Below, piece after piece: positions 2,366 through 41,923 of a DNA stretch of 64,000 nucleotides. Location: positions 1-64,000 of the forward strand of contig NW_026931427.1 of NCBI RefSeq assembly GCF_032062105.1, written 5' to 3'. The DNA comes from Saccostrea cucullata (Eukaryota). How positions within the stretch are numbered: position 1 is the first letter of the stretch; each line of letters starts with the position of its first letter. The position numbers were made by a program, and so were the translations under genes. Under the pieces are notes generated by a model. The model did not search any database. It was given only the letters and a program-made list of their open reading frames with translations, and was not told the origin of the DNA.

Positions 2366-3243
2366 AACTTAAGAGTTGAGGCCACAGCAGTAAATAATAT
2401 AAATCTAAGTACCTAATGAGTACAAAAAAATTTCGATTTCTTCAAAGGCTTGGATACCTATGATTTAAATTTGTAAAATGTGATTGCTTATAAAATTTTA
2501 ATCAGAAAATACATGGTACATGTAGGTGTAAAGTATAGTTGTATGCATTCCCTGAAAATTTTCCGTACATTATAAATATGATAAAAGAAAGTTTAAAGAA
2601 TTATCTTGGGTAAAAAAGACTAAACACTACTTTGAGAATTCAGAGACATTTTTATGAGCATTTTCAATTATGAATGCCTGATTTTCAGAACCTGAGGTTC
2701 GGGGTACCGTATAAAAATAATAATATAAAAATAAAGTATCTCGCCTTATTTTTTGAGATATTGATCTTTTTAGCTTTACAGCTTATAAGTGAAGTTTTCA
2801 TTTGTCATCTTTATGGGTTCATTATCCTGTCCTTAATGAATTTGTAGCCATAATTTAAAAAAAAAAATGTAATTCTTTAAGTTGGTATGTATATTTAAAA
2901 AACATTGCAGAAAATGAAAAATGTTGTAAAGTTTTAGATTAACTCATTTTCCCTAAAAAATATAATAAACTCTAAAGATGAAGTTTGAAGAATTATCTCG
3001 GGTAAATACAATTTTTTTTTAGAAAAATTCAGAGACATTTTTGTGAGCATTTTCACATTTATGTAGAGATTGATTCGACTAATTTTAAATTAAATGGGAC
3101 GTATTTTTCTTTTTATTCTGTAAAAAATTGGCGCAAAACTGTTTTTTTGGTACCTACTCAACCTTGGTGATAAATATTGCCCGGCTCCTAATAAGGTCAG
3201 AAATTTAAAAAGAAAGAATTGTAAATTTATTTGTGCTTTTCAG

Positions 3244-4316
3244 ATGAGAGCTGGAATGAATTCCATTACACATCAAACGAAGGAAGATATCACCATTGGC
3301 TCCCTAATGACCTAAAGAAATTATTGCCAGGACCCTTACCAGAGGGCGGAGAACTGCCGGAATATTATACAGAATTTGACACATTGATTCATGTTACAAC
3401 TTTAGAAAGTGCCAATGGTATTTTGAGAGATGGTTTCAAACCGAAACCAATTGTCGATTATTCAGTTGTCAGCCAAAAATGTCCATTATTGGATCCTGAG
3501 CGAAACAATCTTCAAACGAGGCCACATCATCCCGTTTACGGTGTCAACGTAATTTGGTATGGACCATATATGAAAGAAAAACTCCGAGATCCTGATTCAT
3601 ATATGGAGAAGTATGGGAATGTTGTTTTCAGCATGTATCGTCTAGATGGGTTCGAAGGGATTATACGTAGTGATCTAAAATTCTACTTCATAGAAGTTAT
3701 AGAGTTTATCACGAGCTCCGCTTGTAGGATATTGGTGTCAACTCGTGATTTTCCATCCTTAAAGAAGTTGGAGCCGTTAGAACTCGGTGGTCCGCTATAT
3801 GTACAGAAAGAAGAAGATACGAACAGGTTGTTCTATATAAATAGACTTAAACGTCATGATGGAAACGTAAGAAAAAATACACTTGAAATAATCCAAGAGG
3901 AAATGTTAGGTGAACCAGGAAATTTTAGTCATAAAGAACATTTTAAAAATCACTTTGTAACTTTTAAACATTGCCTATTTCCTAAGCAAAATGTCGAAAA
4001 ATTGGTTGTGCAGAGGCCTTTGGAAGAGAACATGATATCATTTCTGTTGCCAAACATTTTGAAAGTCGCCATAACTATGGCCACTGTCAGAAATCAAAAC
4101 AAAGTTTTTCTTCTATTACCTTTTGATAATGAAGAAACAGGAAATGAAAAACTTCTAAACGAGCTGAAAAAAGTACACAGAGAAGCAATGATAAGATATG
4201 AAGATCTTATGAAGGAGCGCAAGGTAGATACAAAGTCACTCATTGTCAATGCATTCCAAGGCATCTTGCACATGAGTAAAAAAGACATTGTTGACTCGTA
4301 TCTGGAAATGTTTTGA
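3244..4316 (+). CDS. Large coding exon; uncharacterised protein with a predicted ADP-ribosyltransferase-like N-terminal domain and helical C-terminus
   Basis: About 357 open codons in AT-rich DNA; acceptor ttgtgcttttcag at 3231-3243; motifs LIHVTTLESANGILRDGF, VIWYGP, YGNVVF, TLEII. Confidence 0.75.
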
Positions 4317-6679: not shown

Positions 6680-7040
6680 AAAGGCTACAGAGAAGAACTA
6701 TGTTTACGGCGAGTACTAGTATTTCCTGCTTGATATATAGCGAAGATTTATACAATGAAGCGCATTGAAGTGGTAGAATATTCTATTTGGATCACAGGCC
6801 TTTGGCAAGCTTAAAATATTTATGTGTAAAAAAAAAAATAAATAAATAAAGGTATGGAACTCTTACACTGGGTACCCAATTTCGTTAATAAAATATTTCT
6901 TTATTCTAATGCTCTAAAATTTGACCTTCTTCTTCAATCAATTCATAGAAATACATTCTTCAATTCTACCAAAGCTCATTGAGAAATTCCGTATATTTCT
7001 TGAGATATTAGTAGTACATGTATAAACCGCCTAGACGGGG

Positions 7041-7247
7041 AGGTCAACTGAGTTCACTTTTTATGCAAATGAGGTAAAATATTCTGGATTCTGATTGGCT
7101 AGGGAGATAAAGAGGTCAAGGGAGTGCATTTTTGACCCCCCCCCCCCAAGATCTTGGATAGGGAGGTCAATTAAGTACAAGCCCGGGGGCTAGGGAGGTC
7201 AACTAAGTACAGCCCCTGGGTGGGGATAGGGAGGTCAACCAAGTACA
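7041..7247 (+). promoter_or_regulatory. Array of five AGGTCA-n4-AGTNCA (DR4-like) elements plus octamer and CCAAT box
   Basis: AGGTCA at 7041, 7113, 7164, 7196, 7232, each followed after 4 nt by AGT(T/G/A)CA; ATGCAAAT at 7063-7070; ATTGG at ~7094. Confidence 0.7.
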
Positions 7248-7487
7248 GCCCATGGGGGGAAATAAGTGAGGGAATCCTCCTTAGACGCATAGACTTAAAA
7301 AACCTTAGCCTTCTACACTAGGTATTTGACGTTGGCACTACGTGTTGGCATCGATTCAAGTATTTGATTGTGATGTCACGTTTCATTCACAGTCAGCCTT
7401 GCTGTATTTTCTGAAAACGGAAAAAACAATAACAATATCACACAGTGTGAAAAAGTATTTTATTCAGAGTAAAATACATACAGAATT

Positions 7488-7709
7488 TCAGTCTGGGGAA
7501 GTTTCCTCTTGTGGGTGCTGGTGGGACTCTCCTATATTTTTCTCCTGGTCTGCCTCCATTCCTAGATTACGAATCTCTTTTTTTACTTCTTTTATTTCCT
7601 GCATGATGGTGACCATTTCATCTAAGATACCGCATATCAAACTTCTTTCATCTACTTTCATAAGATCCTGTGTTTCTGGTACGGTCTCTTTGGTATTTTC
7701 TTCTGCCAT
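7488..7709 (-). CDS. Small acidic coiled-coil protein (73 aa), probable Polinton accessory gene
   Basis: ATG-started ORF; minus-strand TATATAAAA ~60 bp upstream (7769-7777); minus-strand AATAAA ~25 bp after the stop; heptad-like MVTIMQEIKEVKKEIRNL. Confidence 0.6.
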   Translation of the reverse strand: MAEENTKETVPETQDLMKVDERSLICGILDEMVTIMQEIKEVKKEIRNLGMEADQEKNIGESHQHPQEETSPD

Positions 7710-7768
7710 ATTTTACGTCTGTCAAGGTCCAAGTGCTAACGAAGAGTGAGCGTAGATTTCCAGCGCTG

Positions 7769-7905
7769 TTTTATATACGGTTTGGTTGTTTAGGGTCGTG
7801 TGCATAAATAAGTTTGACTTACGTTTGATCGTACTGTGTACGTCTTTGTACACAGTCTAGTCAGCGAGCTACCTATGCATTGTGACGTCATACACTGTAT
7901 AAATA
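7769..7905. promoter_or_regulatory. Divergent promoter: minus-strand TATA, CRE site, plus-strand TATA
   Basis: TTTTATATA 7769-7777; TGACGTCA 7883-7890; TATAAATA 7898-7905, ~55 bp before the ATG at 7960. Confidence 0.6.
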
Positions 7906-8215
7906 TAGCTTATCTCCGACTTTCATCTCATTCTACTGTTGGAGCCATCTCCTGTCGGCATGTAATTTACAAGAGAAAAAATGTTACATGCCCAACAACT
8001 GATGAGATGGAGAACAAGGGAGAGAGAATGAGACAGAATTATATCTCGACAGAGAACGAGAGAATTACTTCTTTGGAAAACAAATGCCAAAATATTAGAG
8101 AGAAGAGCTCGACTAGAACAACAACAACAACAACATCAACAAAGGACTAGGGCGCATGAGGGACCAAAGTCACTTATCTATTCACCCCCGAAACCCAAGG
8201 ATATTTCCCAGTATT

Positions 8216-9844
8216 AGAGATGTTTCTGAATATGATTCGAATCCAATCTGAAAATGAATCTGAATCCGAGAGATCCCGATCCCGATTGGAAAACTGAAAA
8301 AAAAAAATTAAAAAAAGAATATTTCCTATTTCTGCTTTTAAAATTTTCACTGGACATGTAAAAATAAGGGAAATGAATAGTGGAAGGTGTTTATATTTTT
8401 TGTCATTGTGATTGTTATTGTTATAAATTGTACAAGTCAAATTCTAATTTTAGACTGAATAACAGAACACGTACCCTTTCAATTCATGGAAAAACCTGTT
8501 CGAAAATATTATTCTTGTATTTTTCATTAGCTTACTTTATTTGTTCCTCGCAGGAATTGTGATCTGAACCTTATTTTGAGTAAATGTATTAAGAATCATC
8601 TTAAATATTTAGACGTATTGGAAATATTATGTGTCGGATATTTTTTTTCAACAACATTATCCTATGGCCATGCACTTTCTCGCAGCCCAATTTTTTGTCG
8701 AAAGCAAATCGATTGATAATCGTCATGAAATCGAAACATCTGACAGTTTTCCCTTATATTTACATGCTCTTGATTCCGCCAATCCACGTGCTACAAGCCC
8801 TGCTTCTTGACTCTATTTGTCCCGCCCTGCACATTTCTAAACAGCACCTTTTGATAACCAGGCCCCAGGATCATTAAACATCTTAAGCCTAAGTCAAAAT
8901 CTACATGTTGTACTTACATGTTGTGGATGTCAAGCAGATCAAAATCAAAATATATGCTTCAACATTAATTCACTGAAGTGTTGTTATTTACAAATTTATT
9001 CATTGTAATTTTATCTCTGACAAAGACTTTAGAAATGTAAATATTGTGAAGTTTACAATGCGACAATTAATAGAAAGGGTGGGAAACCCCCCCCCCCCCC
9101 CCCCCCCCCCAATGTCTCCCTCAGTTCTTATAGACCTATATCATATCATTAATTTCGACGTCTTCAAATAAGAAGCCGATCAGTAGCGATCAAGAGAGCA
9201 AAAAATAGCCCCCTCCCTTTGATTATGTTGTTCATTAAATTGTATGATACTGTGAATTCCTAAATAAACGCGTGGAATTAATTATCGCGTTATTTCGCGA
9301 GAAGCACTACACGGAAACTAAAATTACTCGCCTTTATTTTTATGGTGCTGAAATCTATGTAAAATCTCTTGACAAACCTTCCATTCGCGAATTCTTATTC
9401 TCGCGATTTTTCGCTAAAAAGCACATTCGCGATAATAAGAACTCGCGAAAACTAAGGAATCTACAGCATACATATAAAGTAAACAAATATTACCCCCTCG
9501 TTCCTTGGAAATCACATACCCCTCGCTCATTTGCTAGCGCGAACATGTCACCTCCCATATATATCAGAATTTCTCCCGATTCCCTTGGTCGAAGAGAATT
9601 AAACCCCAACAAACCACGCCTATGGGAGTTTATTGACATGCCCTTCCCCCTTCGTCACCTCCCTTAGCAAAATACATATACAAGTATTTATTGATATATC
9701 AAAGACAAAATATAAGTAATCATACTCTCGGTGTATAATTAAGAGTTATATCTATTTTCAAATTGGGATCGGAATCCCTCCGATTCAGGTTCGTTTCAGA
9801 TTCATTTTCAGAGTCGGATTCGGTTCATATTCAGAAACATCTCT
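8216..9844. mobile_element. TIR element with 3-bp TSD (PIF/Harbinger-like) inserted in polB
   Basis: TIR AGAGATGTTTCTGAATATGA; ATT on both sides; removing it restores the frame cag-tat-tat-taa-gta. Confidence 0.85.
9250..9466. mobile_element. Small nested MITE rich in TCGCG
   Basis: ta|CTGTGAATTCCT ... AGGAATCTACAG imperfect TIRs. Confidence 0.7.
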
Positions 9845-11139
9845 ATTATTAAGTAAGACTCAATCAAGCCAAACATTCCAGAAAATTCAAAACGCATGAA
9901 GATGTCTACACTGTCACTTTTAAAGAGTTTCCAGAGGAGGAAAACAGAGGATTTGTTCGACTATTATTTAGAAACATGCTACAAACGGTCAAATCCGAAA
10001 TGCAGTGTAATCCTAATGATTTCCTACGCCTGAACATACGCCACGATTCTTTGAAATATAACATTTGGTACGAGTTTACGCAATGTAAACATTTGAACGA
10101 GGACGTCATTTTGAACAAAATAGAAGCCGTTCAACACTCCAAGCAAGATTTTAAACTGGGCAACGGCTCCATGGAATTCGACCTGTTTCATGTCAATTAT
10201 CCATATGGCAGTGGTGGGGACAGAACCAAGCACTTGATACTGAATAAGAAGAATTTCAAGAAGAGGAAACAATTCATCGTTCAGATTGACAATCCCTAGA
10301 ATAAGTTTTGTTTGGCTAGAACGATCGTCGTTACCCGGTTACACAGTCAAAAACCGGAACATTCATTCCACGAGTGGGAAAACGATGGCTTCGTATGCGG
10401 AAAGGAGATTTTAAGTCCTTGGACCAGAAAAGAGAAGCCTTAGCGCTCATGTAACAGGTCGGGTTCGATATCACTCAAGCTTGTGGACCCGAAGAATGGG
10501 GGAAATTACAGCAGGTATTAGCCCCTCGTTATCGACTGAAAATATTTCAGTTCAAGTCCACTTCCTCTCAACTCTGTTTAGAGCCGATTTACAAAGGCTG
10601 GGGAGATGGAACTTTTTTGAATGTTTTGTTAGACAACCATCATTACGATGTCATCCTATCTATGCCAGGAGTGACGGGGAATCAAAATTACTGTGATCAT
10701 TGCGATGTGGGTTACAGTCATGTTACAGAACATCGGACTCATCGCTGTAATTTTTGTTTAGGAGTCACGCCATGCCTTGAAGACGGGAGTCGCACTCAAT
10801 GCCAGCAATGCTAAGGATTTTTTTTAAGAACAGGACCTGCTATGAAAACCATTTAAGACCCCATAGTAAGAATACTAGCACCAGTGTATGCAGTTTAATG
10901 GGATGATGCGAGCAATGTCAGTCATGGATGCCTTAGAAATTATTCCCTCATCACAAGTGCAGAAACAGTGTAAGATCTGCAAGAAAATCGTCGATTCCGA
11001 TCATCAGTGCTTCGTTCAATTGAAGCCTGAGAAGAAGAACAAGGGGAAAGACACCTTGCAGGTTTACATCTATTTCTATTTCGAATGCACTCAGGAAAAC
11101 GGTATTCACATCCCTAATCTGTGTGTGGCACACCGCGTA

Positions 11140-11690
11140 CAGTAAACGTGGAAATTTTGACGATATGCTAATTTTGACTTTATTGACGATTTTTCTTTTC
11201 TCGTCAAAATTTACACACTCGTCAAACTTCATATCATATATAGCATCACAACAGACACTGACCATTGCACAACATTACCACTAAATTTTCTCGGGCTTCC
11301 CCTATTAAAACTAGATCAAGGGTATTGTTAATTTCCTCTGCAATTAGTTATAAAAACAGAGTGATATATAATCACATTTTTAAAAAACATTGAATCTTAA
11401 CTGAAATACTGCAGGTGTAACTTAGTGTAATTATAACACCGTGCTAGTTTGTTACCTTGGGAAATTGACCGCTTATAATAAAAAGACATTGCAAGAGGGC
11501 AATTTATTTTACAATTTCTTTTAGATAGTTTATACAATCTTACATATTGTAGATGGTCTGTACAAAACTTAATTTTAGTAATTCAGACGCCGCCTTTTTA
11601 TTCCCTTGAATTCAAAGATAAATAACTCTCGAATTAAATATTTCGTCAAAATTAACACTCGTCAATTTTTGTAAACAAAAAATCGTCAAT
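11140..11690. mobile_element. Truncated MITE replacing part of the polB exonuclease domain
   Basis: Starts ta|CAGTAAAC; TTGACGA/TCGTCAA repeats; polB homology stops after CVAHRV and resumes at WY..QQTGKVLDFQKE; ExoII missing. Confidence 0.7.
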
Positions 11691-13791
11691 TGGTACATGT
11701 ACGAACAACAGACCGGAAAAGTGCTTGATTTTCAAAAGGAGTTTTTAGAGTATTGTATTTCAGACGTCGATATTTTACGACGATGCTGAACTCAGTTTAG
11801 AGCCACCCACAAGAGTTTGGTGCTTGTAGACCCTTTCAACCACGTTTGCCAGTGAAGCCAATTTAGCCTACCGTAGAGGATTCATGCCTTAAGAGACCTT
11901 TGCCATCATTCCTAACCTGGGGTATAAACCAGCGCGACAATATTCAGCCAAAGCCTGCTGGTGGCTCACCTGGATGACTCAACAGAGCGGATGTAACATA
12001 CGACATGCAAGAAACGGGGGCGAAGTCAAAATAGGACTCAAACCGTATACGAATTTTATGGCTGCTATTGGCACGGATGCCCCACCTGCTATCCTAATTT
12101 ATAGATCCTCACCGGACCCAATTTACTTACCAGAAATTAAACGAGGAAACTCTCAGAAGGAGTTCGGTCTTGGAAGGAATGGAGTACACCGTCCGTAGCA
12201 TCTGCGAGCACAATTTCTATCAGCAAGTGCAACGAGTTATGAGTTTACAGAATTTTGCACGAGACCTGGACATTCCCGATCCTTTGACCCTCCGAGAAGC
12301 CCTGTACGGAGGCCGAAACAATGCGATGCGATTACAAGTACATGTATATTGTGAGGAAGTTAAGGAGTTAATTGGACGTCTGTATCTTATTCCCGTACAC
12401 GTTAAAACAAAGACCTTTTCTTCTGGGCATCCTCAGATCATCACAGACGAGTTCCAGGACGTGAGAAGTTATTTTGGCCTCATTCACTGTCGGGTTTTAC
12501 CACCCCAAACCCTCTTCACCCCGTTTTACGTTATCGCATGGGAGGCAAGTTATTATTTCCCTTATGCCGAACTTGTGCTAAACAACAGGACTCTACCTCT
12601 CAGCATCGATGTCAACACACCAACCAGGAACGCAGTCTCAAAGGCACCTGGGTGATGACAGAATTACATATAGCTCTGGACGTGAGATATACCTTAGAGC
12701 GAATATACGAAGTTTGGCAGTATCCAGAAAGCAGTCAGGATTTATTCAGTCCTTACATCGATACCTTTCCCAAGATAAAACAGGAAACTTCCGGACCCCC
12801 CCCCCCCACCCTCGAGTGACAGACCTTAGAACAAAAACAAGATTACATTCGGCAAGTCTTACACAAAGAAGGATTTATGATGGACCTGCTCAGTATCGAG
12901 AAGAATCCAGTGAGAAGAACAATAGCTAAACTCTTTTTAAATTGTCTTTGGGGAAAATTTGCTCAACGATTGTTTTTACCCAAAACCAGATACCTAGCCG
13001 AAGAAGAGGAATTACAACAACTCTTACAAGATTCGACCCTCGACATCAAAGGTGTATAACTCTTAGACAATAAAGAGCAGCCTGATTTGGAAATGATGCT
13101 GATGAATTACCAAGAGAAATAGGAATTCGTAGAAGAGTGTCCCTTTGAAAATGTGGTACTGGCCTGTTTTACGACCGGTCATGCCCGCTTACACCTCTAC
13201 GAGACTTTAGAACCTTTAGGAGATCGGGACCTTTATTTCTATACAGACAGTCTTATCTACCAACATCAGAAAGGAGCCTTTTAATCCTTAACTTTGGGAA
13301 TAATTTAGGGGAATGGACCGACGAATTAGACGGGGACCACATCATCAAATTCATGTCGGGAGGCCCTAAAAATTATACTTATGTCACAGCCAAAGGAAGA
13401 TCCGAGTCAAAAGGCTTGACTCTCAACCATCGAGCCTCCCAGATCGTGTCCCCAGAGACTTTAGAAAAAAAGCTTAAGAAAGAAATTGATGAAATTCAAG
13501 TGGCGTATCCCTACAAAGTACAGAGGACCTGTCAACATGAAGTCAAGACTGTCCCTTTGGAGAAACAATATAGAATTGTGCATGATAAGAGACAATTATT
13601 GTTAACCCATTATAACACTTTACCTCATGGTTATTGATGTGATTGTTCAATGTTGACATTGAATTAAAAATGGATTTGCTGCTATTTTTTTCTTCTTCAT
13701 TACAGAAAAGGTCTTGGTTTTAGGTGAGGGATATATAAAAAGGGTATTGATATGTTTATTGTTGACTTTAAATAAAATGGATTTGTTTTCA

Positions 13792-36985: not shown

Positions 36986-37321
36986 TCCAGTCATCCTTAA
37001 AATAAAATAATTAATTATTCCCTTTAAAACGAAAGCAAAACAGAAAGTAAAGTCTCTGTAGTAATTTCGGTGTTTTAAGAAAAAAGGCTGAGCATGCAAT
37101 ACCCAGAATAATATATGTACTATGTAGACAAAAATGCTTCAAATCCCTTAAATTATAATCGCAACTTCCTTGATAAAAATGCTAAAATTTTCTCAGCTCA
37201 TGAAATAATTAACTATTTGTCGAACTTTCAAAATACTCAGTGTACTTCCATGAATGAATAACTTACATCCGGTAAAGGGAGAAGTAATTAAAACACAATT
37301 TAGATAAAAATAATAAAAGAG

Positions 37322-39181
37322 TCAAACAGATCAGTCACGATTTTGTCAAAAATCCTATTGTCATATCCACACAATTGCTTATTGGCAGCATCATGTTGTA
37401 AAATTTGAATTTCGCGGGTGGCAGTAAATACAAAATTTACAACATGACGACTCTGACACCCGGTGAATTCAAAATTTTCAACATGACAGCAAGCTAAACT
37501 GGTATTGTTTTTCTATTGTCATTTCGTTGGTGAGCTTAAATAATTCTATGAACACTTAAACGTTTTCTTGAGAATGAAAAGAAAAAAAATTATAATTTTA
37601 AGAATTTTATCTTAAGAATTATCTTTTAACACATATACCCAGACAAACCATGACTGAAAGGCTTGATTATAAACATTTTAGGAACATTCATGAAATATAA
37701 AAAAAATATACGAATACACAAAATAATAATATAGATCACATATATCTACAAGTTTATATACATGTATGTGGTTTGAGTTAGTTCATCTTCTTTCATACAC
37801 ACGAATTTCATTGTTAAGTTTATACAGTTTTTCCTCAAAGGACAAAATAGGGTAACGACCGAATCTGTCCCCTTATCAGATGTAAAAAATTAGAACGCTG
37901 GTAAAATTGTGATAGTTTGTAGTTAAGAAGTTAAAATAATGTTTACTCTAAAACAAACAATATTTTAGATTCAAAGCTTACATTGAAGCCACAATAGGGT
38001 GCAGTAGGACCTTTTCCTGAATTTCTCAATTCTCGTGAAATTTTATCATATCTAAAAAAAACTTTTCTTCGGAAAACACAGAGAACAGGCTTGCATACCT
38101 AAGATTTTTACTCTTGTACCATAGTTGGGTGTGATTTCTTTTGTTAAAAGTGTGGGTTTTCTGTACATAACCCACACTTTTCTATAACTCCGCCTATCGA
38201 GTCGGGACAAAAGAACTGTTTATAAAACGATCATGCACGGTTTTTAAATGAAAAAATCATACGGGCTTGTTATACCAAATTTAGGAGAGTAAAAAGGAGC
38301 CTGTAAAAATTTTCAATTGTATACAGCATTTAGTAATAAATAACAGTTAAAAACGACAATTAATACTTTAACTATAGTTAAAAATGAAGTAAAAAACTTC
38401 AGAATTCGCTTGATTTTTTAAACATATTTTTGAATAGTGTAATGACCAGGGTGACGTTAGCTTAGTAAAAAAATACATTTTTCAACAATCAGGAAAAAAT
38501 CAAAATTTTACTTTCCAAAATGTTTTCAAATACTTTTATGTGTTTTGAAAAGGACAAGATAGGGTAATACCCTTATTTGGCCCCCGGTTTGGGATGTCTT
38601 TCAGAATAATCCAACATATTATCCATAAAAAACTGTTATCACCCATGCCTTAAAATTAGTATTGGTTTTAAAATTTGAATATACAGATGTCACAGAGAGA
38701 TCAAGAAATATGTAAATTTACAGCACATTTTGTTTCGGAAAAACATAGAGCACAAACTTGCATATCTATCAAATTTATATATTTTATACCCTAGTATCAG
38801 ATGCAGTTTATGTAGTAGTTACCCCATATCATACTGTTGGTTAAGTGTAGATTCCCGACGGGCGTGGTCATAATGACACGAGGGAGCGTAATATGTTGGA
38901 TTATTCTGAAAGACACCCCAAACCGGGGGCCATATAAGAGTATTACCCTATCTTGTCCTTTTTAAAACACATAAAAGTAAAATTTTGATTTTTTACTGAT
39001 TGTTGAAAAATGTATTTCTTTAATAAGAGTAATAATTGTGTCTTCTGTGGAAGAGCCAAGTAAAACAGTACATAAATCAAATTTTATGATTTTTCAAGAT
39101 CATGGCACCTGATACCACCTTCGATGTTTTGAAGGTCCGTGGAGCTCCTATTTTGTAATGTTTTATGGAGTTTTTATCTTA
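37322..39181 (+). repeat. Left arm of a large inverted repeat
   Basis: Reverse complement of 40235-41895 with scattered SNPs and a few indels. Confidence 0.95.
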
Positions 39182-40234
39182 AACACTATTCCTTATCTTC
39201 ATATGTTCATTATCTTCATCATCTTGCTGACAAAGAGAACATGACTCATTTCCTCTAATTTTAGACAAAATAGTACTTGTTTGTACAAAGAATTTTCGCA
39301 TATGACTCTAAATTTAACCACAAAGCCTCGAGTCTTTTGTAAATGAATAATATTTTTGTGAATCATTTTCCTGTTAAATTCTTAATGTAACTGCTTTTTA
39401 TTTTAGTCCAATTTGATTCACATTTCGGTGAGGAATATATACAAAGAGACAAATATGTATCTTAAATTGTTTTGGAACCTTTTTTGATTTTGTTCAGAAT
39501 TTCTACAAGTTTTGACAGAATAGGTCTTGTGACAGAATTAATGCATGCATGTACATCTATAATATTAAACAAAAAATGCTAAACAGATTTTTTCATTACT
39601 TCCTGTAAAGTTAGAAAAAAGACCCTTAAGGTACATTCTTTAAAAAGATTTCTATTATCATCAAATAAATCGCCAACTATAATTAATCCCTAGGCCTTTT
39701 TTATACATGTACAATGGTCTTGAAAAAAGATAATTATTTTGAACCATTATTTTAATGTTATAACACTGGGATTCCAACAACATATTTCTTTAGTTCATGT
39801 AATAATTTATTTAGCTGAAAATACATAGAGCTTTTTTTCAAAAAAAAAAAAATCTATTTGGACATGGACACAGTTTCAGCTAAAATTTTCAAATTTATAT
39901 CTTTGTTTTTTATGTTTACAAATATCTATAAAAGATATTTCTAATGATCATCATCAATAATTTGAATTTCAGTCGAGAAACAATACAGATTTAGACATTC
40001 AAATCTTTGTAATATAAACAGAGCCTGTGTAATGCTTTTGTTTAAAAAGGTTTGGTATACTAATATATGTTTATTCAAAGCAATTTTTTTCAAAGGAAGT
40101 TAATTCTAAATACAATTAGAAAGTTTCTAGTAATTTATTTTTATAAATATGATATTCTCTTTATGTAAACAAAAACAATGCATAACGCTACATTAATAAG
40201 AATTTAAGTTCTGTATTAAAATATTTGCTGATCA

Positions 40235-41895
40235 TAAGATCAAAAGTCCATAAAACATTACAAAATAGGAGCTCCACGGACCTTCAAAACATCGAAGGTG
40301 GTATCAGGTGCCATGATCTTGAAAAATAATAAAATTTGATTTATGTACTGTTTTACTTGGCTCTTCCACACAATTATTACTCTTATTAAAGAAATACATT
40401 TTTCAACAATCAGTAAAAAATCAAAATTTTACTTTTATGTGTTTTAAAAAGGACAAGATAGGGTAATACCCTTATATGGCCCCCGGTTTGGGGTGTCTTT
40501 CAGAATAATCCAACATATTACGCTCCCTCGTGTCATTATGACCACGCCCATCGGGTATCTACACTTAACCAACAGTATGATATGGGGTAACTACTACATA
40601 AACTGCATCTGATACTAGGGTATAAAATATATAAATTTGATAGATATGCAAGTTTGTGCTCTATGTTTTTCCGAAACAAAATGTGCTGTAAATTTACATA
40701 TTTCTTGATCTCTCTGTGACATCTGTATATTCAAATCTTATAACCAATACTAATTTTATGGCATGGGTGATAACAGTTTTTTATGGATAATATGTTGGAT
40801 TATTCTGAAAGACATCCCAAACCGGGGGCCAAATAAGGGTATTACCCTATCTTGTCCTTTTCAAAACACATAAAAGTATTTGATAACATTTTGGAAAGTA
40901 AAATTTAATTTTTTCCTGATTGTTGAAAATTTTTACAGGCTCCTTTTTACTCTCCTAAATTTGGTATAACAAGCCCGTATGATTGTTTCATTTAAGAACC
41001 GTGCATGATCGTTTTATAAACAGTTCTTTTGTCCCGACTCGATAGGCGGAGCTATAGAAAAGTGTGGGTTATGTACAGAAAACCCACACTTTTAACAAAA
41101 GAAATCACACCCAACTATGGTACAAGAGTAAAAATCTTAGGTATGCTAGCTTGTTCTCTGTGTTTTCCGAAGTAAATTTTTTTTAAATATAATAAAATCT
41201 CACGAGAATTGAGAAAATTCAGGAAAAGGTCCTACTGCACCCTATTGTGGCTTCAATGTAAGCTTTGAATCTAAAATAGAGTTTGTTTTAGAGTAAACTT
41301 TATTTTAACTTCTTAACTACAAACTATCACAATTTTACCAGCGTTCTAATTTTTTACATCTAATAAGGGGACAGATTCGGTCGTTACCCTATTTTGTCCT
41401 TTGAGGAAAAACTGTATAAACTTAACAATGAAATTCGTGTGTATGAAAGAAGATGAACTAACTCAAACCACATACATGTATATAAACTTGTAGATATATG
41501 TGATCTATATTATTATTTTGTGTATTCGTATTTTTTTTTGTATTTCATGAATGTTCCTAAAATATTTATAATCAAGCCTTTCAGTCATGGTTTGTCTGTG
41601 TATATGTGTTAAAAGATAATTCTTAAGATAAAATTCTTAACATTATAATTTTTTTTTTCATTCTCAAGAAAACGTTTAAATGATCATAGAATTATTTAAG
41701 CTCACCAACGAAATGTACAATAGAAAAACAATACCAGTTTAGCTTGCTGTCATGTTGAAAATTTTGAATTCACCGGGTGTCAGAGTCGTCATGTTGTAAA
41801 TTTTGCATTTACTGCCACCCACATGATGCTGCCAATAAGCAATTGTGTGGATATGACAATAGGATTTTTGACAAAATCGTGACTGATCTGTTTGA
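40235..41895 (-). repeat. Right arm of a large inverted repeat
   Basis: As above; lacks ~170 bp present at ~38318-38486. Confidence 0.95.
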
Positions 41896-41923
41896 ATCTT
41901 CATAATTTTGACACATTAACATT

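Follow-up and report, generated by a model that had tools for sequence, protein, structure and literature searches.

The left end of a Polinton copy in the oyster window

Polintons are known almost only from sequence, and what triggers their expression or copying in animals is the question raised by this locus. The window, a stretch of 64,000 nucleotides of Saccostrea cucullata (contig NW_026931427.1, positions 1 to 64,000), contains an AGTAGT end at 7010-7015 that is followed by motifs resembling binding sites of host transcription factors. An initial annotation interpreted this region as a Polinton terminus starting at 7010 and built like a host-factor-driven viral origin, with five DR4-type nuclear-receptor elements and an octamer. 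Position 7010 is the element boundary, as relatives align from AGTAGT inwards, the flanks upstream of AGTAGT are unrelated, and whole copies possess paired TIRs and 6-bp TSDs. All five matches to AGGTCA-n4-AGT(T/G/A)CA were found at the positions first described (7041, 7113, 7164, 7196 and 7232). This motif occurs nowhere else in the 64 kb and gave no match in 100 shuffles. The last three units are copies within a 32-36-bp tandem repeat (7156-7259), thus the five are not independent. The octamer-bearing string TATGCAAATGAGG at 7062-7074 and ATTGGC at 7094-7099, the latter as part of CTGATTGGC at 7091-7099, were likewise present. The features of the copy are:

7010..7040, plus strand: Polinton end core, consisting of the (AGT)2 terminus and a length-conserved, sequence-variable segment
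7041..7056, plus strand: first DR4-type unit, 3' half apparently decayed to AGTTCA
7062..7074, plus strand: optional octamer module ATGCAAAT (7063-7070), found in 172 of 1134 ends
7091..7098, plus strand: CTGATTGG, NF-Y-type CCAAT box in reverse orientation, lacking the NFI palindrome
7113..7247, plus strand: four more DR4-type units (7113, 7164, 7196, 7232)
7488..7712, minus strand: small accessory ORF, 74 codons from stop to stop, pointing toward the TIR
7883..7905, plus strand: CRE (TGACGTCA) and TATA box ahead of the pPolB start, predicted polymerase promoter
7960..13637, plus strand: broken protein-primed DNA polymerase B gene (pPolB), PF03175 in fragments

The polymerase gene is damaged by stops, frameshifts and two large insertions, and its pieces lie at about 7969-8214, 9844-11139 and 11700-13634. 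The copy stops shortly beyond pPolB and is truncated, with the integrase and ATPase genes absent. No right TIR or TSD belonging to it was found in the window, and the one match in the genome with the same flanking 6-mer is a different end type. The window copy is a broken oyster Polinton, of which this region forms the left end. Compared with L003, the same insertion in a second assembly, it carries a private 6-nt insertion at 7016-7021, which explains why its core measures 31 nt compared to about 25 nt across the family. The 3' half of its first DR4 unit reads AGTTCA. As L003 lacks the insertion and has AGTGCA, the T variant and the 6-nt offset look like decay of the window copy. The 74-codon ORF is common to several other copies, and the CRE-TATA block precedes pPolB also in other copies and in a sister lineage.

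An abundant Polinton family in the host genome

The 321-nt end of the window copy matches many sites in the 1.17-Gb host genome. A 19-letter pattern of the end gave 1134 matches, compared to 28 for the reversed control; this number counts ends and not elements, because the assembly holds some insertions twice (judged by their flanks, five of the 93 ends sampled were duplicates). Whole copies are 17-29 kb long. Exact TSDs were found for C159, C1717, C3034, C9120, C15129, C10596, C13135 and C3229, and one with a single mismatch for C10814. C1717 encodes pPolB, a BIR-RING protein, a Pox_A32 ATPase, an integrase with rve and chromo domains and a zinc-knuckle protein, while ORFs of a size fitting capsid or protease gave no Pfam match. 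The pPolB of a long-ORF relative matches PF03175 at an E value of 5e-58, and the subfamily of the window shares approximately 80% nucleotide identity with the long-ORF copies in the polymerase. Among named polymerases, those of Saccostrea (96% and 85%), Ostrea (73%) and Crassostrea (69%) come closest. With pPolB, the rve-chromo integrase, the packaging ATPase, (AGT)2 TIRs and the 6-bp TSD all present, the family is Polinton/Maverick. It resembles other animal Polintons/Mavericks (adintoviruses) in these traits and in its length, and (AGT)2 is reported as the commonest Maverick end motif (PMC8097293).

Members of the family also carry cargo of a kind that counters host defence, namely the IAP-like BIR-RING gene, a PP1-binding gene resembling GADD34/ICP34.5 and an additional ORF, macro-domain-like by eye and with no Pfam match (L064:4926-5456, L066:704-1210, L065:7819-8316).

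Conservation of the DR4 unit

The sample of ends comprised 93 of the first 100 listed matches to the 19-letter pattern, chosen regardless of DR4; after removal of four duplicates and one chance match 88 ends remained. For 330 units the distance to the partner was taken from the 5' half: it is 4 nt in 275, 3 nt in four, 5 nt in one and 8 nt in one, with no partner in 49. Conversely, when the 3' half serves as the anchor, RGKTCA is located precisely 4 nt upstream in 219 of the 253 internal units. The unit thus satisfies the geometry of a DR4 response element, two hexamers in direct repeat with a 4-nt gap. Arrays comprise one to seven units per end, and among the 56 ends of the sample with an exact DR4 within their first 60 nt, the first unit starts at position 26 in 55. 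The 5' half varies between GGGTCA (71 ends), GGTTCA (25) and AGGTCA (12), with the non-canonical forms TGGTCA (6) and GGATCA (5), and the 3' half of the family is AGTGCA or AGTACA.

It had been stated that half-sites and 4-nt spacing are kept while the spacer bases vary. This is correct for the spacing and for spacer positions 2-4 (top allele 43-73%), but not for position 1, which is an A in 244 of 253 internal units (96%). The first-unit spacer reads ACTG in 52 of 55 cases, and a G-rich GATAG stretch upstream is 83-93% conserved, nearly equal to the 5' half-site. Among relatives, conservation extends beyond the half-sites: the DR4 geometry is kept family-wide and in a sister oyster lineage, and bases outside the hexamers are kept too. 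The contrast between spacer and linker lengths is partly unfair, as linker-length variation is inflated by G-runs.

Support from another lineage comes from one contig, the metagenome contig L168, whose polymerase is 59-68% identical to that of this family and closest to the Crassostrea virginica lineage (75%). It harbors a DR4 unit at position 26, again with the ACTG spacer, two extra AGGTCA half-sites and a CRE-TATA block before pPolB. Since an exact DR4 of this type was seen in L168 alone among 82 metagenome or viral loci, DR4 is not a general Polinton feature. Scans of viral contigs gave no match for the DR4+octamer pattern and none for a single pPolB query, and an alignment query returned two loci without these motifs. 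DR4 does not appear to be a requirement in the oyster either, as C3229 (3 kb, both TIRs, TSD) has no DR4 and C9120 (both TIRs, TSD) has a single unit with one mismatch. An exact unit is absent from 10 of the 79 ends represented by at least 250 nt.

Swappable modules behind a short core

At least four different modules occupy one slot behind the core of about 25 nt. The 88 sampled ends comprise 53 with DR4 only, 15 with DR4 and octamer, 13 in which a CCAAT box comes first and 7 in which an ETS motif comes first. Genome-wide, DR4 near the end was counted about 772 times (control 34; with a looser prefix and including the octamer class), the octamer 172 times, CCAAT-first 174 times and ETS-first 96 times (controls 0). 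The two TIRs of a copy are of one module type. Among five copies whose first modules are of three kinds (DR4, ETS, CCAAT), the integrase genes are 97.0-99.5% identical, hence the module type is decoupled from the integrase of the element. Polymerase genes are 89-96% identical across copies with different modules. The modules likely spread through recombination between ends.

Several of these modules correspond to published host sites, which upholds the proposal that the end is built of motifs of host-factor type. The ETS module, a sister of the module in the window copy, includes an ETS-CRE composite with overlapping CGGAAGTGACG; its first 10 letters stand at position 26 in 96 ends, and the full motif was seen in sampled ends. 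The ETS-CRE and ETS-ETS overlaps of this module are both known host composites (PMC3464117). In CCAAT-first ends, which likewise differ from the window copy, E-box and CCAAT box are separated by 11 nt in ten of 12 cases and by 10 nt in the other two, matching the reported NF-Y/USF positioning with the E-box at -12/-11 relative to CCAAT (PMC3730095). The box itself is held at position 33-35 despite widely differing preceding bases. Telomere-like arrays of five or more CCCTAA lie inside the TIR in 20 of the 88 ends and were mostly observed together with CCAAT/E-box or ETS modules (L079, L080, L082, L084, L235 and others).

The octamer, when present, lies at about position 48, and was found at the corresponding place in only 172 of the 1134 ends (control 0). 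Together with the CCAAT box it is absent from both TIRs of two long-ORF copies, which does not agree with the view that it is a fixed part of an adenovirus-style origin. The half-site after the octamer is AGGTCA in most octamer-bearing relatives and AGGTAA in the window copy. In a recurring variant a block containing TCTAGGA before the octamer replaces the 3' half-site region (L083, L051, L091, L252-L253). The ATTGGC of the window had been described as CCAAT/NFI-like. It is a CCAAT box of the NF-Y type, and an NFI site was ruled out, as the second half of the palindrome accompanies none of 32 CTGATTGG boxes.

The TIR consists of a core of about 25 nt and a swappable cassette of motifs of host-factor type. 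Probably, though by no wide margin, this cassette is read by host factors and serves the predicted CRE-TATA promoter of pPolB as an enhancer. Host transcription factors would bind the modules and, once bound, would keep the DNA end open. The cassette would then enhance the promoter 0.4-1.7 kb further inward, with transcription as the presumed output, and ligand or stress would toggle the output of DR4 arrays. RXR heterodimers repress when unliganded and activate when liganded. A host-factor cassette is favored because interchangeable, unrelated motifs of activator type share one slot independently of the enzymes of the element. Counted against it are the conservation beyond the half-sites (spacer base 1, GATAG and ACTG), the recurrence of non-canonical 5' halves and the sparse poly(A) reads described below.

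The same wider unit would be expected of subterminal sites for a protein encoded by the element, i.e. integrase, terminal protein or the zinc-knuckle protein of the family, with mere resemblance to nuclear-receptor sites. Subterminal repeats are common in DNA transposons. However, copies with TIRs and TSD but no exact DR4 (C3229, C9120), the independence of module type from integrase sequence and the identity of the alternative modules with known host composites make this explanation improbable. We consider it no more probable that the DR4 units are a chance product of a neutral G-rich minisatellite or structural repeat homogenized by recombination. The tandem 32-36-bp period, the G-runs and the replacement of the repeat by telomere-like arrays in some ends would agree with such an origin. 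On the other hand, the terminus strand folds no better than shuffled sequences (z = +1.18), for which reason a hairpin or structure reading was dropped. Moreover, the length of the spacer is constant in spite of the variation at its bases 2-4, the unit remains at position 26 in a lineage with only 59-68% polymerase identity, and the other modules in the slot are textbook motifs.

A more serious alternative, although still an unlikely one, is an auxiliary origin of the adenovirus type, in which host factors bound behind the core would aid the loading of the terminal-protein polymerase and promote protein-primed initiation, with transcription being secondary. The modules start at position 26, within nt 23-36 where NF-I is reported to bind in adenovirus (PMC6410123). 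They are anchored to the DNA end and not to the promoter, which lies 388, 874 and 1676 nt away, and the fixed place of the CCAAT box and the shared module at both ends of a copy also fit this analogy. Against it stand the missing NFI palindrome, the octamer confined to 15% of ends, and arrays that reach 200-300 nt inward. Furthermore, because unrelated factor classes fill the slot in elements with near-identical integrases and 89-96% identical polymerase genes, one specific protein contact is hard to square with the data. The enhancer-cassette and origin readings are not mutually exclusive.

The core itself showed a further peculiarity. Positions 11-25 (7026-7040 in the window) resemble a barcode in L031-L148, with 81 different strings of fixed length in 88 ends. 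Copies for which the two ends are available have one and the same string at each, and all four allele combinations occur in 40 of 45 site pairs. Such a pattern suggests that recombination is heavy, or that diversifying pressure acts, directly at the origin.

Ends of distant Polintons

AGTAGT sites pointing at the gene were scored in 80 metagenome loci with related polymerases. At 57 such sites, 43 motif kinds were counted in the 200 nt inside compared to 10 outside (permutation p=0.001), with a motif list that was picked after some ends had been seen and with ends lacking TSD confirmation. Ten sites had two or more motif kinds inside and none outside, against a background of 47 in 2521 tiles. 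With the uncollapsed set, a sign test gave no significant difference (19 vs 9 of 64 sites, p=0.087). Among 11 distant ends examined, a CCAAT box stands at position 31 in five and an octamer at 41 in one, positions that again speak for the origin reading. The 11-nt gap between E-box and CCAAT box occurs in 5 of 16 pairs in the 80 loci. Distant animal Polintons thus have similar clusters of CCAAT, E-box, ETS and CRE motifs, but, among the 82 loci, no exact DR4 of this type outside L168. Dense motif runs were observed in L157, L186, L193, L225 and L227, which we take to be YY1-, RFX-, ETS- and CRE-like.

It is conceivable, though doubtful at this stage, that animal Polintons generally use their TIRs as recombining, LTR-like enhancer cassettes. 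The oyster DR4 array would then be read by an RXR-NR1J xenosensor, so that diet, pollutants or sterol state would induce the element, and the co-circulating ends would be tuned to receptor, POU/NF-Y, NF-Y/USF and ETS/CREB programmes.

RNA from the element

In two poly(A) runs 294 and 194 raw reads mapped to 10 kb of the element, on both strands and mostly below 5x per direction, and no transcription start site was found in this interval. The contigs of two random-primed 'metatranscriptomic' runs of the host, X1 and X2, span all 10 kb (L064:1-10000) fairly evenly, including the TIR. Because such even coverage looks like DNA, neither run is evidence of transcription. The coverage is deep, with one dominant haplotype at many sites, which could be due to many identical genomic copies or to free element DNA.

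Candidate receptors of the DR4 array

TR and LXR had been named as RXR partners on DR4 elements. The 3' half AGTGCA/AGTACA points away from both, and oyster TR is reported to prefer spacings in the order DR3>DR2>DR5>DR0>DR4>DR1, assayed without RXR, which ranks DR4 fifth of six; thyroid hormones did not activate it (PMC4692385). Read in reverse complement, AGGTCA-n4-AGTACA corresponds to the CAR:RXR element NR1 (PMC7555422), and AGTGCA is the half-site of DAF-12, yet DAF-12 binds DR5 and not DR4 (PMC3140985). Oyster NR1J receptors, homologous to CAR/PXR/VDR, carry the signature ESCKAFFR (PMC4070562). The host genome contains four DNA-binding-domain exons of this NR1J type, with zf-C4 confirmed for one. 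The match to NR1, the AGTGCA half, the four NR1J exons and the weak performance of oyster TR on DR4 favor RXR with an NR1J sensor (HR96/DAF-12/CAR-like) as the reader of the array rather than TR. This tentative assignment, somewhat short of an even chance, builds on half-site preferences from vertebrates and nematodes.

The reported repression by unliganded oyster TR, which binds DR0-DR5 (PMC4692385), would also be in line with a silencer or latency lock, whereby unliganded receptors and corepressors quiet integrated copies in most tissues and thereby aid persistence. The very low poly(A) signal over the element would fit, but may in the two runs equally reflect general transposon silencing. 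As the interchangeable NF-Y/USF and ETS-CRE modules are promoter motifs of activator type, a lock of this kind appears rather improbable, and the enhancing cassette is preferred.

Relation to known systems

Published descriptions of Polinton/Maverick ends, in the portions available, cover the 6-bp end motif and TIR lengths and do not mention host-factor sites or swappable modules. Adenovirus ITRs share with the oyster ends a short conserved core followed by host-factor sites at about nt 23-50, and gain or loss of sites by recombination is documented for the NF-I site of HAdV-E4 (PMC6410123). The oyster ends differ in that NFI is lacking, the octamer is optional, the slot takes unrelated classes and a nuclear-receptor array dominates. 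The predicted receptor sites share the half-site pair and 4-nt spacing with the CAR/PXR:RXR DR4 element NR1 of the CYP2B PBREM (PMC7555422) and the 3' hexamer with DAF-12 sites (PMC3140985). Compared to both, they are arrayed one to seven times in a terminus of viral type, and spacer base 1 and GATAG are conserved as well. The other modules have the same composites and spacing as the NF-Y/USF-bound LTR12 and MLT1 enhancers and housekeeping ETS-CRE promoters. Modular turnover of enhancers in a terminal repeat is a trait of retroviral LTRs, whereas the oyster Polinton resembles a DNA virus, its ends are inverted and protein-primed, its TIR modules show no TATA box and its predicted promoter lies further in.

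A literature search covering titles, abstract openings and selected text passages found no account of host-factor sites, module swapping or receptor arrays in the TIRs of Polintons. Both Polintons and the occurrence of host-factor sites in viral termini are already known; their combination with swappable TIR modules is apparently undescribed. The similar clusters in distant Polintons point to a general design common to adenovirus ITRs and retroviral LTRs. With about 1000 ends, near-identical integrases and naturally swapped modules, the family offers a ready comparison set for the controlling host factors, and host signals that likely switch on the polymerase gene would give a handle on what wakes Polintons. 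If a xenosensor reads the receptor array, exposure of oysters to chemicals could influence a virus-like element that is very abundant in them. Every insertion, moreover, places a cluster of receptor, NF-Y or ETS motif sites into the host genome.

Other repeats and reading frames

A group of matches of about 74 nt starting with AGTAGTATAAACAAGA was considered as a Polinton end and rejected, since the 11 retrieved loci have an almost identical flank upstream, contain repeats of about 148 bp and showed no polymerase ORF. It represents a separate, abundant repeat (L071-L078, L085-L088), whose units are rich in E-box and CCAAT motifs and which is possibly a non-autonomous element of the Helitron type. 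Within the window, an intronless ORF of 363 codons with no Pfam match lies at 3225-4316, 2.7 kb outside the element, and a 4.6-kb foldback at 37317-41900 has inverted arms of about 2 kb with 97-99% identity.
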